Source of the DNA: an uncultured Alphaproteobacteria bacterium
GTDB lineage: Bacteria > Pseudomonadota > Alphaproteobacteria > 16-39-46 > JAJRRM01
DNA: 26,644 nt
Assembly (NCBI GenBank): GCA_964594205.1
Contig: CAZQLR010000004.1
Coordinates: forward strand, 1-26,644
Reading direction: 5' to 3'
Positions 11,545 to 19,670 of this stretch are shown piece by piece (the stretch's first letter is position 1; each line of letters starts with the position of its first letter). The notes beneath the pieces were generated by a model. The model saw only the letters and a program-made list of their open reading frames with translations. It made no database searches and was not told the DNA's origin. Both the position numbers and the translations under genes were made by a program.

Positions 11545-11958
11545 GTGGCTTTATTAACAATAGGTGGGATTGCAGCAGCGTGCTCAGTCAAGATTGACAC
11601 AGTTAGGTATTATGAAAAGCGAGGATTATTAGAGCCTATATCACGTACTAGTGTTGGATACCGTCTCTATAATGATAAGAGTGTATCTACATTAAAGTTT
11701 ATAAAACATGCTCAATATGTAGGCTTCTCACTCGAAGAAATAAAGAGCCTTATCATTATCAGTTTTTCAAGAAAAAATATATGTAACGAAGTTAAACAGA
11801 AAGTTCAAGAAAAGATAACCATCCTAGAAAGGAAAGAACGAGAGTTGATGAAAATGAAAAAGGCCTTAGAAGGAATTAAACGTGATTGTAGCAAAGTAAA
11901 AAATGAAGGGCAGCATTGTCCATTTCTGGAGCAGTACAGGTTGCAGGAGCGAGTTTAA
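11545..11958 (+). CDS. merR: MerR-family metal-responsive regulator
   Basis: HTH TIG.IA..CSV..DTVRYYEKRGLL, GYRLY; Cys80, Cys115, Cys125; GTG start with GAGGGAG SD; TAATG coupling to merT. Confidence 0.88.
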   Translation: MALLTIGGIAAACSVKIDTVRYYEKRGLLEPISRTSVGYRLYNDKSVSTLKFIKHAQYVGFSLEEIKSLIIISFSRKNICNEVKQKVQEKITILERKERELMKMKKALEGIKRDCSKVKNEGQHCPFLEQYRLQERV

Positions 11959-12335
11959 TGCAAAAAAACGGAAAAGAACCTTTAAACGCTAGGTGGGCGC
12001 TCGGCGCCGGCATAATAGCTGCTATTGCCTCAGCAGCTTGTTGTATTCTCCCTCTAATTTTATTTCTATTTGGTATCAGTGGCGCTTGGATTGGAAATTT
12101 GACGGCCATGGAGCCCTATCGTCCTTACTTTCTTACAGTTGCTGCAATAACAGTTCTGTTTGGGTATTGGAAAATATATCTCAAGAAAAAAGTCAACTCT
12201 TGTGAACGCGATAGTTATTGTTCTATGCCTAAATCTGATCTTATTAACAAGATTATGTTGTGGATTTCCTCAGTAATCATTATCCTAGTACTGTTATATC
12301 CTTATATAGCCCCCGTCGTTTTGAACTACCTATAA
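11958..12335 (+). CDS. merT: Mercuric ion transporter MerT (125 aa)
   Basis: ASAACCILPL, GISGAWIGNLT, EPYRP and loop Cys pair C-x5-C. ATG at 11958 overlaps the merR stop and has a CAGGAG SD; the ORF-track start at 11916 is too long. Confidence 0.92.
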   Translation: MQKNGKEPLNARWALGAGIIAAIASAACCILPLILFLFGISGAWIGNLTAMEPYRPYFLTVAAITVLFGYWKIYLKKKVNSCERDSYCSMPKSDLINKIMLWISSVIIILVLLYPYIAPVVLNYL

Positions 12336-12357: not shown

Positions 12358-12675
12358 TTGCATACATTTATACTTGTAATACTTTCAACCTGCTGCCTAG
12401 GGGTGAATGTTAACGCTCATGCACAACCCCCCTCTATCACAACAAAAACCAATAAAAAAATAGTCACACTGGAAATACCGGGTATGCATTGCCCAACTTG
12501 CCCATTTACTGTTCGGAAAAGCTTAAAAGAGGTGGATGGTGTTTTAGACATAAAAGTCTCGAGTCAAGATAGAACAGCTAGCGTAACTTATGATCCAACA
12601 AAAACTAGTGTAAAAAAGTTAATAGAAACCACAACTAAAGTAGGGTATCCCTCTACTGTAAGACATGAGAACTAA
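12358..12675 (+). CDS. merP: Periplasmic mercury-binding protein MerP
   Basis: Signal peptide, GMHCPTCPFTVRKSL HMA motif and TTKVGYPS, directly after merT. Start codon uncertain (TTG 12358 or ATA 12352). Confidence 0.88.
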   Translation: MHTFILVILSTCCLGVNVNAHAQPPSITTKTNKKIVTLEIPGMHCPTCPFTVRKSLKEVDGVLDIKVSSQDRTASVTYDPTKTSVKKLIETTTKVGYPSTVRHEN

Positions 12676-12788
12676 CCAACATCTGGTTACGGTCATATAT
12701 TGTTGCTGTCTGTCATTAATAGCGTTAGATGAATGCTCTTTAAAAGTTAAAGAACTTGTTTGATTGGGGTCTTTTCCATCAGTAATAA

Positions 12789-12816
12789 AGAGCGAATGAA
12801 TTAGTTCATTCGCTCT
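12789..12816. terminator. Bidirectional terminator-like hairpin between convergent merP and merA
   Basis: Perfect 12-bp IR AGAGCGAATGAA-ttag-TTCATTCGCTCT. Confidence 0.7.
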
Positions 12817-12848
12817 CACTCAACTAAATGTTATATTAATCGTTCAAT

Positions 12849-14477
12849 TTACAATTTAGAAAAAGGATCTTCATCAGAAGATTCATCTCTAAATCTACTC
12901 CCACGACTTCTTGGTCTTTCTTCTTGCTTAGCACAACAATCATGTTGTGCTGCCGCAGCTATAGGCAGATGTTTCATTTCCTCTTGTTCATCCCCTTCTG
13001 TATAGGTTGCGCTGTCAGAACAACAAGATAAGTTTTTGACATCTGTAAAGAATGTTTGTGCACAGAGCTTAATTCCCTCAACCATAGTTAGATAAGGATA
13101 AAGAGGTGCTGCAAGTTCAGAAATTGTCATCCTACCTCGAAGAGCAAAAACGGCGGTCTCAATAACATCCCCTGCATTTGATGCAACAATTTGAGCACCT
13201 AGTAAACGCCGCGTGCCTTTCTCGGCAACAAGCTTGATGAAGCCGTCCGTTTCAAAGTTAGCCAAGGCCCTTGGAACATTATCTAAAGTGAGAAGCCTAA
13301 CTTCAGCGTCTAAATTCATAGAATCAGCCATAGCCTTTGTTAACCCTACTGTTGCCACCTGTGGATCGGTAAAAACAACCTCAGGAACAATAGATAGGTC
13401 TAGATTTATCTGTTTTCCCGTCATATTCATAGCAGCACGTGTGCCAGCTGCAGCAGCAACATAAACATATTGAGGTTGATCTGTACAATCCCCAACAGCA
13501 AAGACATTTTCCACGCGCGTTCTCATGAATTTATCAACAGGAATACTTCCATTTGATGTTGTTTCCAAACCCACAGCTCCTAAATTCAGAGCGGTAGTAT
13601 TTGCATGACGACCTAAAGCAACTAACAACCGATCACCCGTGATCGTTTCATGGTCCGTAATGATGTTAAATATACCATCTCCATAAGAAACGTTCGTTGG
13701 TACAGTATGTGTCTTCACATTTATACTTGCCTGACGGAAAATTTTCTCCAATTGTGTTCCAATATCAGGATCCATTTTAGATAATAGAGTACTGCGAGCG
13801 AGAAGCGTAACATTTGACCCCAATCGAGAAAAGGCTTGGGCTATCTCTAAGGCTATAACAGACCCCCCAAGAACAATAAGATGTTTCGGAATTTCATCAC
13901 TGTACAAGGCTTCTTTAGATGTCCAATAAGGCGTTGAGGAAAGACCTTCTATATTAGGTATGTAAGGAGAGCTTCCTGTTGCTATTAATACGTTATCTGA
14001 TTTAAATTCCTCATGAGACCCTTCGCCTTTATCAACTAAAACTGTATTTTTATCTAAAAATTGAGCTGTTCCTTTTATAAGTCTAATAAGGGGGTGTTGA
14101 GATAGGACATGTTCATATTTCGCTCCTCTTAACTCCATAACACGGCCCGCACGTTGTTCTAATAAAGCTCTTGGATCAACCCTTGGTTCAAGACCCTCTA
14201 TCCCACGAAAAGGACTGTGGGCCTGAGAGTGAGCTATTTTCCCTGATTGAATAAGAATCTTAGAGGGAACACACCCATAATTAACGCATGTCCCTCCAAT
14301 GACGCCATCCCTTTCAATCATTGTTACTTCCTCTCCATGAGATGCCAAGTAAGTTGCCGCCGCAAAAGCTCCAGACCCACTTCCTATAATCGTGTGTTTT
14401 CCAGCCATACTCATTTGTACTCCTACAGTTGCACTGAAAACTATAGCAGAAAATATTACTACTTTTGTCTTTTTCAT
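12849..14477 (-). CDS. merA: Mercuric reductase MerA without NmerA, with signal-like N-terminus and 56-aa C-terminal extension
   Basis: IIGSGSGAFAAA, GGTCVNYGCVPSK, PQYVYVAAAAG, PRALANFETDGFIKLV, PYLTMVEGIKLCAQTF, NLSCC (C485-C486). Alternative start at ATG 14414. Confidence 0.95.
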   Translation of the reverse strand: MKKTKVVIFSAIVFSATVGVQMSMAGKHTIIGSGSGAFAAATYLASHGEEVTMIERDGVIGGTCVNYGCVPSKILIQSGKIAHSQAHSPFRGIEGLEPRVDPRALLEQRAGRVMELRGAKYEHVLSQHPLIRLIKGTAQFLDKNTVLVDKGEGSHEEFKSDNVLIATGSSPYIPNIEGLSSTPYWTSKEALYSDEIPKHLIVLGGSVIALEIAQAFSRLGSNVTLLARSTLLSKMDPDIGTQLEKIFRQASINVKTHTVPTNVSYGDGIFNIITDHETITGDRLLVALGRHANTTALNLGAVGLETTSNGSIPVDKFMRTRVENVFAVGDCTDQPQYVYVAAAAGTRAAMNMTGKQINLDLSIVPEVVFTDPQVATVGLTKAMADSMNLDAEVRLLTLDNVPRALANFETDGFIKLVAEKGTRRLLGAQIVASNAGDVIETAVFALRGRMTISELAAPLYPYLTMVEGIKLCAQTFFTDVKNLSCCSDSATYTEGDEQEEMKHLPIAAAAQHDCCAKQEERPRSRGSRFRDESSDEDPFSKL

Positions 14478-17591: not shown

Positions 17592-19670
17592 ATGACTAAA
17601 TATTTCTCTCAAACAACAGTTGCTTTATCCCTACTCTTCCTGGCCATTCTCTCAACAAGTTGGGCCAAAACAGTGTCCTACAATTTAGTCGTCACACCCA
17701 AAACACTTATCGTTAAAGATGAGAAAGTAAAAGCACTTTCTTATAACAATAAAATACCAGGCCCCACACTCTATGCCACCGTTGGTGATATGTTGGAAGT
17801 TTCTGTAACCAACAATCTAGAAGAAGAAACATCCGTTCATTGGCATGGCGTTCTCTTACCAAATGATCAAGATGGTGTTCCCTATTTAACGACGCCGCCA
17901 ATAAAACCTGGGGGGACATTCACCTATAAATATGAAGTCACCCACCCCGGCACCTATTGGTATCATTCACATTCAGGTCTTCAGGAGCAGTTAGGGCTTT
18001 ATGGCTCGCTCGTATTTCTCCCCAAAGAAACATCTCATCGCGCCGACCATGACTACGTCGTTGTTCTATCTGACTGGATTAATGAACCGCCTGGAACGGT
18101 GACATCAAATATTAAACGCCAAGATAACTACTATGCCTTGAAAAAAAATGCCGTTCAATCTTGGCTGGGCGTTATAGAAAATGGATGGCCGGCCATAAAA
18201 TCACGACTAGAAGGTGCCTGGGACCGCATGGGGCCCATGGATATCTCTGATGTTGGGTATGATGCCTTCTGGGCAAATGGCAAACCCATAACCCACCTAG
18301 ATGCCAAACCTGGTGATACTGTCCGCATAAGACTCATTAATGCAGGCGCCTCAACTTATTTTTATCTACAGTATGCGGGCGGCCCCATGACAATTGTTGC
18401 CGCAGACGGTGTGGATGTAGAACCAGTGGACGTTAATAGCTTGAAGATTTCCGTAGCAGAAACCTATGATGTTCTTGTTAAAGTCCCTCTTCAACATACC
18501 TACGAGCTAAGAGCTACAGCGGAAGATGGAACAGGATACAGTTCTATACAGATTGGTGAGGGGTCCCTTATTACTGCTCCAGATATGCCCAAACCTAATA
18601 TCTATTTAAGTCATAGCGATCATGGAATGAACCATGCCGGCAATGAACGAGATAATCAACAGATGTCTTCTCATGGATCAGAGCAGCATGGACATATCAT
18701 GTCACATAACACAGACAAACACGCTGAATCCATGGACATGAACGAGTATGATATCTTACGTGCCACCTCAGAAACAGCTTTGCCGGCCCATCAACCTTGG
18801 CAAACTATTACACTCAAGCTCACTGGGAATATGGAACGCTACGTATGGACGTTTAATAATGAGACGCTGTCTGAAGCAGATAAAATTCTTATTAAAAAAG
18901 GGGAAAACGTCCGCTTTATTTTAAAGAATGAAACAATGATGCATCACCCTATTCATTTACATGGTCACTTCTTCCGTGTGGTAAATAAACATGGCGACTA
19001 TAGCCCTTTAAAACATACCGTTAACGTGCCACCGATGAGCACTGTCGAAATTGAATTTGATGCCAATGAAGAAAAAGACTGGTTTTTCCACTGCCATAAT
19101 CTATATCACGTGAAAACGGGCATGGCTCGCATCGTTTCGTATGAAGGGTCAACAACAGCAACAGACAAAACTATTGCCAAGCTTGCTCATGACACTGACT
19201 GGTTTCAAGCCTACGACTTAAGTGCTCTATCGAATATGACTTATGGTCATGGTAAAATCGGTAACACGCGCAATGCTTTCATGGTTGACTACGAAGCAAA
19301 CTACGAAAAAGAGTATGATGTTGACTTAACTTATGACCGTAATATTTCTAGGTATTTAGATATATATGGAGGGGTTAATTTTGAACGGGCAGATGCCAAG
19401 AAAAAAGGCGAAGCAAAGGGTATTGTGGGTCTGAAATATGTCCTACCTTTACTCATTGAAAGTGATCTTCGTTTAGATGACGATGGCCATGTGCGCTTGC
19501 GACTTGGTTCGGAGCTTCAATTAACAGACCGCAGCAGCCTAAGCTGGCAATGGGATACAGATCATGCATATCGCATATCAACCTCTTATGAGCTCCAAAA
19601 AGACTTTTACCTCTCCGGCGTCTATGATTCAGAAAACAAACTAGGTATTGGGATAAGAGTAAAATTCTAA
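17592..19670 (+). CDS. Multicopper oxidase (CopA/PcoA-like) with C-terminal beta-barrel-like extension
   Basis: VHWHG, WYHSH, HPIHLHGH, HCHNLYHVKTGM copper motifs; His/Met linker; about 175 extra C-terminal residues ending IGIRVKF. Confidence 0.9.
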   Translation: MTKYFSQTTVALSLLFLAILSTSWAKTVSYNLVVTPKTLIVKDEKVKALSYNNKIPGPTLYATVGDMLEVSVTNNLEEETSVHWHGVLLPNDQDGVPYLTTPPIKPGGTFTYKYEVTHPGTYWYHSHSGLQEQLGLYGSLVFLPKETSHRADHDYVVVLSDWINEPPGTVTSNIKRQDNYYALKKNAVQSWLGVIENGWPAIKSRLEGAWDRMGPMDISDVGYDAFWANGKPITHLDAKPGDTVRIRLINAGASTYFYLQYAGGPMTIVAADGVDVEPVDVNSLKISVAETYDVLVKVPLQHTYELRATAEDGTGYSSIQIGEGSLITAPDMPKPNIYLSHSDHGMNHAGNERDNQQMSSHGSEQHGHIMSHNTDKHAESMDMNEYDILRATSETALPAHQPWQTITLKLTGNMERYVWTFNNETLSEADKILIKKGENVRFILKNETMMHHPIHLHGHFFRVVNKHGDYSPLKHTVNVPPMSTVEIEFDANEEKDWFFHCHNLYHVKTGMARIVSYEGSTTATDKTIAKLAHDTDWFQAYDLSALSNMTYGHGKIGNTRNAFMVDYEANYEKEYDVDLTYDRNISRYLDIYGGVNFERADAKKKGEAKGIVGLKYVLPLLIESDLRLDDDGHVRLRLGSELQLTDRSSLSWQWDTDHAYRISTSYELQKDFYLSGVYDSENKLGIGIRVKF

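Follow-up and report, generated by a model that had tools for sequence, protein, structure and literature searches.

We describe here a mercuric reductase, MerA, that continues past its catalytic cysteine pair into a tail, predicted to be disordered, in which a second vicinal cysteine pair is embedded. The gene lies in a stretch of 26,644 nucleotides, called the window below, that was analyzed over its whole length and comes from an uncultured alphaproteobacterium (contig CAZQLR010000004.1 of assembly GCA_964594205.1, positions 1 to 26,644). What is new is a bona fide MerA with what, judged from sequence comparison, is a third, C-terminal architecture for an auxiliary mercury-binding site, the binding itself being putative. 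The protein belongs to a previously undescribed group of tailed mercuric reductases, and the tail architecture is real, old, and selected. We propose that the tail may act as an auxiliary Hg(II)-capturing arm that would feed the catalytic pair in place of the N-terminal domain NmerA, a mechanism that is plausible and whose chances of being correct we consider about even.

Identity of the reductase and anatomy of its tail

The merA open reading frame (ORF), called from its translation and from family models, encodes 542 residues and occupies positions 12849 to 14477 of the minus strand, stop codon included. Its product (P0001; P- and L-numbers are the labels of proteins and loci in this analysis) scores 673.6 bits against the NCBIfam model NF010311 (cutoff, 600) and 505.5 bits against TIGR02053 (cutoff, 454.45), with lipoamide dehydrogenase as the next family, under its own cutoff, and Pfam finds three pyridine-nucleotide disulfide oxidoreductase domains (Pyr_redox_2, 2.8e-66; Pyr_redox_dim, 9.4e-27). 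In a structure alignment, residues 29 to 487 correspond to positions 8 to 466 of the 467-residue Tn501 core, 1ZK7. The redox-active pair C64-x4-C69 (CVNYGC; 14271 to 14288, minus strand) aligns with CVNVGC of that core, and the catalytic vicinal pair C485-C486, here called CC1 (codons TGTTGT; 13020 to 13025, minus strand), aligns with the Cys-Cys that stands two residues before the end of the Tn501 core chain; both pairs are invariant in our alignment A1. The active-site tyrosines Y121 (in AKYE) and Y462 (in PYLTM) align with Y100 and Y441' of the 1ZK7 chain, and the roles of the catalytic residues, both tyrosines included, have been described previously (PMC4500099). A vicinal cysteine pair at the end of the dimerization domain also serves as a criterion for MerA (C558/C559 in Tn501 and C628/C629 in RC607; PMC8261052, PMC3466566). 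By its sequence, the window protein is a genuine MerA with all catalytic residues present, and it is predicted to have the class I pyridine-nucleotide disulfide oxidoreductase fold and to reduce Hg(II) to Hg(0) with NADPH.

No Pfam match to the HMA/NmerA domain (PF00403) was found in the window MerA, in agreement with a first-pass annotation of the window that had noted the absence of NmerA. The usual place of this domain is taken by a hydrophobic, signal-peptide-like leader (residues 1 to 25; 14403 to 14477, minus strand), recognized by its Kyte-Doolittle hydropathy, which is 1.89 over residues 6 to 24.

The first-pass annotation had also reported that the ORF runs 56 residues past C485-C486 and contains a second cysteine pair, C514-C515. 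Both statements are exact, the former in its coordinates and in the translation of residues 487 to 542 and the latter in the raw sequence. The tail is encoded at 12852 to 13019 of the minus strand and followed by a TAA stop codon at 12849 to 12851, and its first residue, 487, is where the NCBIfam MerA alignment ends, one position short of the end of each model. An acidic linker (residues 487 to 511; 12945 to 13019), classed as disordered from its charge and from the predicted local distance difference test (pLDDT), leads to H512-D513-C514-C515 (12933 to 12944), read from the raw sequence, in which the second vicinal pair, CC2, carries a His-Asp prefix (QHDCC). The distal tail (residues 516 to 542; 12852 to 12932), as translated, is basic and then acidic and serine rich, and it ends in -SKL (12852 to 12860); all three elements lie on the minus strand. 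The first-pass annotation had missed these last 27 residues with their -SKL end as a separate feature, outside the relay idea.

The tail has a net charge of -6, with aspartate and glutamate making up 25% of its residues. In an AlphaFold2 model built with an alignment of the clade, the core is confident while residues 487 to 542 have a pLDDT of ~30-35 and no secondary structure, and the tail is accordingly described here as predicted, by modeling, to be disordered. Because it lacks a PF00403 match, is predicted to be disordered, and has CC instead of CxxC, it is not a member of the NmerA family. At this base composition, 56 codons would stay open by chance with a P value of 0.036. C514-C515 uses the same codons as C485-C486 (TGTTGT, at 12933 to 12938), and no tandem repeats were found in 12700-13200; an origin of CC2 by duplication or slippage was rejected, since without a tandem repeat only these codons are common to CC1 and CC2. 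A lipobox or CaaX reading of the tail cysteines was rejected on position.

A clade of tailed reductases and the conservation of the second pair

Among the best 120 matches to the window MerA, 96 stop exactly two residues after CC1, usually with Ala-Gly, which bears out the earlier statement that canonical MerA ends about two residues past the pair. The other 24, comprising the window MerA and all of its nearest matches (53-62% identical), carry tails of 4 to 327 residues; all 22-24 nearest relatives are tailed. The longest extension, the 327 C-terminal residues of P0015, has no Pfam match and one hydrophobic segment.

We defined the tailed clade as MerAs whose cores group with tailed sequences and that have at least 4 residues after CC1, and the window MerA fits this definition. 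A quick tree of 69 cores parts 24 tailed from 45 canonical sequences at one starred split (99% in the Shimodaira-Hasegawa-like approximate likelihood ratio test, SH-aLRT). In a careful tree with outgroups, the window MerA falls inside an 18-row clade (support, 99/98), and four leaderless tailed sequences lie in a basal polytomy; a constraint joining all 22 tailed rows came out 2.9 log-likelihood units above the free tree, the highest likelihood obtained, and was not rejected in the approximately unbiased test (p-AU, 0.58). Since the terminal branches extend to 0.7-0.8 changes per site, the tail feature is old, and every member of the clade has a tail, in samples and assemblies that are independent of one another. 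A recent stop loss absent in close homologues, raised in the first-pass annotation, was rejected as the origin of the tail because the near relatives all carry tails and the feature is old; CC2, too, recurs in the deep branches of the clade.

When the tail alone (residues 483 to 542) was used in a word search of 5.8 billion proteins, the window MerA itself was the sole match; the tail is therefore kept as a motif and not as a sequence. An exhaustive search at 50% clustering, at which the whole clade is one representative (P0015), added only P0203 and P0135, and at least one member of the clade, at L002, is among the matches listed in named genomes. No tailed MerA was found among the PLSDB plasmids, whose best matches are canonical, with cores ~56% identical, and the solved MerA structures all end at CC plus one or two residues. 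A full-text literature search on C-terminal extensions, tails, and NmerA-less MerA variants returned no description of the tail, and surveys of MerA diversity, which trim NmerA beforehand, name no C-terminal extensions or extra pairs (PMC8261052, PMC3466566).

Alignment of the tails on CC2 reveals CC1 followed by A/S-D, a linker of 13-83 residues, the motif [H/D][D/S]-CC, and then usually 5-11 residues, compared with 27 in the window MerA. The linkers are acidic, unconserved in length and sequence, and unalignable between lineages. The conservation check proposed in the first-pass annotation came out in favor of the pair: CC2 recurs in 10 of the 11 tails that are 18-92 residues long, with 0.12 expected by chance (an excess of ~80-fold). 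HDCC itself occurs in 6 of the 10 CC2 sequences, HDCC or a near variant in 10 relatives, and the P0014 tail has three CC pairs; a Ser-Asp dipeptide right after CC1 is common to the window MerA, P0002, P0005, P0013, and P0053. The history of CC2 on the tree takes at least 5 changes. Its presence in all deep branches and its loss in a short-tail subclade (CC-A/S-H-x-E...S-K/N-L) suggest that it is probably ancestral in the tailed clade, and its retention in at least 8 separate unfused lineages with fully diverged linkers argues for selection on the pair itself. Such a build, one conserved thiol motif on a variable disordered linker, is that of a swinging arm.

The distribution of auxiliary pairs was surveyed in the 199 MerAs with CC1 from this analysis. 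NmerA is present in 93, none of which has a tail CC, and the 106 MerAs without NmerA divide into 22 with an N-terminal CC arm, 10 with a tail CC, none with both, and 74 with neither. The N-terminal arm consists of 4-25 residues with a vicinal CC just before the Rossmann fold (MSDCC..., MRDCCADK, or MSDTHDCCAGG), and its bearers include P0023 (where it reads THDCCAG), P0070, P0088, P0090, P0104, P0109, P0126, P0137, P0141, P0147, P0166, and P0196. No description of this arm in NmerA-less MerAs was found in the literature searched. It seems to be the N-terminal equivalent of the tail pair, and P0013, inside the tailed clade, has lost both its leader and CC2 and has an N-terminal CC arm instead. 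The first-pass annotation had called the architecture one it did not recognize; this stands for the tail, while a CC arm as such is not unique to the window MerA, its N-terminal version being common.

Fused enzymes offer a further variant. P0011, P0203, and P0135 are MerA-MerB fusions in which MerB is C-terminal, P0011 having in addition a signal-peptide-like leader. In P0203, an HGCC motif stands in the linker between MerA and the fused MerB, placing it between MerB, the source of Hg(II), and the receiving CC1, and P0018, which has a free tail, shows homology to this linker there, CC position included.

A possible mercury relay and its alternatives

MerF has terminal vicinal cysteine pairs. 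In MerA, mercury is recruited by NmerA, and the C-terminal CC of one monomer delivers it to the other (PMC4500099). From the anatomy, conservation, predicted disorder, and complementary distribution observed here, we infer the following relay, in which the binding of mercury by CC2 and every transfer step are conditional. [quoted passage not shown] There, Hg(II) would be handed from CC2 to CC1 by ligand exchange, and C485-C486 would pass it on to C64/C69 and FADH- for reduction to Hg(0), as in canonical MerA. The tail would thus play the part taken by NmerA in Tn501-type enzymes, and the short N-terminal CC arm apparently would do likewise in many NmerA-less MerAs.

The first-pass annotation had suggested that a flexible C-terminal CC arm may replace NmerA, and the present observations support this in part. 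Mobile terminal CC pairs that carry mercury have precedents in CC1 of MerA itself and, as proposed, in the disordered tail of HgcB (see below). This relay draws support from the combination of predicted disorder and a variable linker with a conserved CC, and from the way in which the tail pair excludes NmerA and the N-terminal arms, together with the swap in P0013 and the linker pair in P0203. It is also supported by gene context: tailed merA genes often occur in merR-merA units with no transporter or with merT only, on integrative, Tn3-type, or conjugative elements. An enzyme in this setting has to obtain its Hg(II) from the thiols of the cell, and scavenging would matter where no transporter is present.

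Several observations weigh against the relay. Of the NmerA-less MerAs, 74 of 106 have no auxiliary pair at all, and an arm is therefore dispensable for catalysis; the exclusivity counts are phylogenetically non-independent, the tailed sequences being one clade; and a 12-row subclade has kept a short tail and lost CC2. In the window MerA, CC2 lies 27 residues from the C terminus and not near the tip. The export-type leader may place the enzyme in an oxidizing compartment, where vicinal thiols might behave differently, and the -SKL end suggests that the tail has a further role or another one altogether.

This last point leads to the explanation, unlikely in our estimate, that the tail serves chiefly for targeting, secretion, or processing, with -SKL read by the peroxisomal targeting signal 1 (PTS1) receptor of a host or, on the bacterial side, by a PDZ-type protease, the serine-rich acidic end acting as a translocation signal, and CC incidental or used for lipidation or anchoring. 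At least 5 lineages of the clade have proteins ending in SKL, SNL, PKL, SSL, or SKM, despite tails that are otherwise unalignable (P0010, P0016, P0021, P0072, P0003, P0004, P0014, and P0005), in leader-bearing and leaderless members alike, and PTS1-type ends ([S/A/C][K/R/H][L/M]) are found in only 3 of the 702 long ORFs of the source genome, the SKL of the window MerA being such a tripeptide; to act as PTS1, it would have to be exposed to a eukaryotic cytosol and bound by Pex5. Most of the 18-row clade shares a conserved signal-peptide-like N terminus (lysine rich, hydrophobic, ...LSA/M), the leader being present in P0002-P0011, P0016, P0018, P0021, and P0053. The alphaproteobacterial genome is small (~1 Mb), the MerA of a relative comes from an amoeba symbiont (Candidatus Paracaedimonas acanthamoebae), and the C terminus of a neighboring 533-residue leader protein is likewise an extremely acidic S/D/E tail. 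All of this would suit targeting, but such a signal covers the last three residues and not the conserved vicinal pair. It is the CC motif, not the extreme C terminus, that is conserved across the long tails; CC is never at a CaaX position; and the five leaderless members, P0012, P0014, P0015, P0072, and P0114, several of them without an SKL-like tripeptide, bear the longest CC2 tails. Another alternative is a pair that caps CC1 by a mercury bridge or a disulfide, or that buffers excess Hg(II), and so shields the catalytic thiols, especially if the enzyme is exported to an oxidizing compartment, a regulatory or protective role that we consider unlikely. In its favor, the linker has the length needed to reach back to CC1, an export-type leader is present in many members, and the histidine beside the thiols (HDCC, or CC-A/S-H of the short tails) suggests tuned thiol chemistry; yet the longest CC2 tails occur in leaderless, presumably cytoplasmic members, a distribution complementary to N-terminal arms and NmerA fits acquisition better, and no MerA precedent was found in the literature searched.

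The fusions raise the question of whether the tail is a leftover interdomain linker, retained with little present function after an ancestor lost a C-terminal partner domain, MerB or another. Fusions within or beside the clade (P0011 and P0203), the 327 extra residues of P0015, and the homology of the P0018 tail to the P0203 linker, down to the CC position, are compatible with such a history. We nonetheless think it improbable, as most clade members are unfused, the basal ones included, and CC2 has been kept in the unfused lineages while their linkers diverged fully; moreover, a CC in a fusion linker would itself be a relay, so that this explanation overlaps with the preferred one. That the tail is functionless read-through, by neutral C-terminal drift, or an assembly artifact is largely excluded by conservation and has very little chance of being right: although the tail sequence is without relatives in the word search and the open-frame probability is only moderately low, tails are universal in the clade across separate samples, the CC motif stands far above chance, and the Ser-Asp after CC1 is shared by P0002, P0005, P0013, and P0053. 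The targeting, linker, and cap explanations each account for part of the anatomy, and none fits a conserved pair with a complementary distribution as well as the relay.

We treat the distal tail as a separate, targeting-like feature outside the relay mechanism. A conserved leader is odd for an enzyme that depends on NADPH and FAD, and the SKL-like ends of the clade resemble PTS1. A tie between tail and signal peptide was rejected, given that the five leaderless members have CC2 tails. Peroxisomal catalase reoxidizes Hg(0). It is conceivable, if highly improbable, that this is a reengineered MerA acting outside the bacterial cytoplasm, exported from an intracellular alphaproteobacterium by its Sec-type leader, collecting Hg(II) on its own with the CC2 arm in place of NmerA and without a hand-off from MerT, and routed to or retained in a compartment of a eukaryotic host, such as peroxisomes, by -SKL, so that a symbiont would detoxify mercury for its host with host NADPH.

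Genomic setting, significance, and comparison with known systems

The window represents a conjugative or integrative element with a coupling protein, a MobA/MobL-helicase-primase relaxase, and TraD, and it also holds AbiE and HipAB toxin-antitoxin pairs. Its metal resistance cargo includes a MerR-family regulator, merT, and merP, which converge on merA, as well as a copper P-type ATPase and a multicopper oxidase. The regulator gene (11545 to 11958, plus strand) matches Pfam MerR_1 and MerR-DNA-bind, and it scores below the cutoff of every metal-specific NCBIfam equivalog, among them ZntR and MerR. It is followed on the same strand by merT (11916 to 12335; Pfam MerT, 109 bits), whose first transmembrane helix contains a CC pair, and by merP (12358 to 12675), with a leader and a Pfam HMA domain (TIGR02052, 88.1 against a cutoff of 92.55). 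The raw sequence also contains, where merP and merA converge and between their stop codons, a hairpin with a perfect stem of 11 bp and a loop of 4 nt (12790 to 12815), which a consensus terminator scan did not call because no T-run follows. Elsewhere on the same mobile element as merA, positions 1161-2762 of the plus strand encode the 533-residue protein with a signal peptide and no Pfam match, whose C terminus is the most acidic among the long ORFs of the genome (net charge of -11 over the last 20 residues, S/D/E rich). The multicopper oxidase (17592-19670, plus strand) sits after the copper P-type ATPase, which has YHS and HMBD N-terminal domains, and a weak CopB-like C-terminal region in Pfam (PF05275, 3.8e-05) suggests that it may be a CopA-CopB fusion. 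The source genome (975 kb in 123 contigs, 81% complete, 41% GC) belongs to an order with eight species genomes of 1-1.9 Mb, and MerA is found in none of the others. This setting fits a host-associated bacterium with a horizontally acquired merA.

Other tailed merA loci have features of their own. At L087:533-5778, two MerA paralogues are encoded on one contig, one with leader, tail, and its own merR. The other is canonical in length and bears an SCC arm at its N terminus; its gene belongs to a merT-merP-merA-merT operon that is accompanied by a second merR. Divergent from the merR-merA unit of P0015 (L084:974-7836) is a bufferin-like set with two BufA1, MbnB/TglH/ChrH, HvfC_N, and DoxX genes, along with a patatin gene, merT, and a second flavoprotein disulfide reductase without a CC pair. 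A gene of the carboxymuconolactone decarboxylase (CMD/AhpD-like) family adjoins merR beside several tailed merA genes (L088:6829-7628, L085:6765-7553, and L086:6765-7553).

MerA is the textbook case of a metal ion handed between cysteine pairs, from NmerA to the C-terminal CC and on to the buried CxxxxC. If the tail pair and the N-terminal arms are true Hg(II) collectors, NmerA would be one of three solutions, and a third of the sampled "core-only" MerAs would not really be core-only, which would change the MerA sequence classes used in environmental surveys of mercury cycling. An acidic linker with HDCC would then also be a candidate minimal peptide module for engineered bioremediation enzymes. 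The tail further provides, through C514A/C515A or its deletion, a mutational handle on the access of Hg(II) to MerA in cells without NmerA or even without MerT.

Known enzymes close to the window MerA include the Tn501/Tn21 MerAs (1ZK7 and 4K7Z), which are ~55% identical to the window MerA over residues 29-487 and share its FAD/NADPH fold, CxxxxC, two tyrosines, and a vicinal CC that delivers to the partner subunit (PMC4500099). Unlike the window MerA with its leader and 56-residue CC2 tail, the Tn501 enzyme has an N-terminal NmerA and ends two residues after CC. NmerA, insofar as the work of Ledwidge et al. (2005) is represented in the papers citing it (PMC4500099, PMC10587081), resembles the tail in the role proposed for the latter, a flexibly tethered two-thiol capture of Hg(II) for the C-terminal CC. 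As represented there, it is an N-terminal, folded beta-alpha-beta-beta-alpha-beta domain with GMTCxxC, whereas the tail is predicted to be disordered, is C-terminal, has CC, and is not homologous to it. The MerAs with N-terminal CC arms (P0023, P0141, and P0196) likewise lack NmerA and have an auxiliary CC on a short unstructured terminal segment, although at the opposite terminus and of only 4-25 residues.

Direct transfer from MerB to MerA and N-terminal MerBA fusions are documented, and in those of the soil Alphaproteobacteria Xanthobacter autotrophicus Py2 and Rhizobium, NmerA is replaced by another mercury module on a flexible linker (PMC10114901, PMC11227200); MerB is N-terminal in these proteins, in contrast to its C-terminal position in P0011 and P0203, and the window MerA has no MerB. 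A further likeness is found in HgcB, whose disordered C-terminal tail of variable length ends in CC and has been proposed to shuttle mercury to a catalytic center (PMC7305189). HgcB is, however, an unrelated ferredoxin that serves methylation and not reduction, and the role of its tail has only been modeled. High-Mr thioredoxin reductase has a mobile C-terminal cysteine pair that acts as a shuttle. The large subunit of ribonucleotide reductase similarly uses a mobile C-terminal cysteine pair to relay between the outside and a buried pair (PMC4078304). Both of these enzymes relay electrons and disulfides and no metal, and in MerA, where CC1 is already a relay, the tail would add a second stage.

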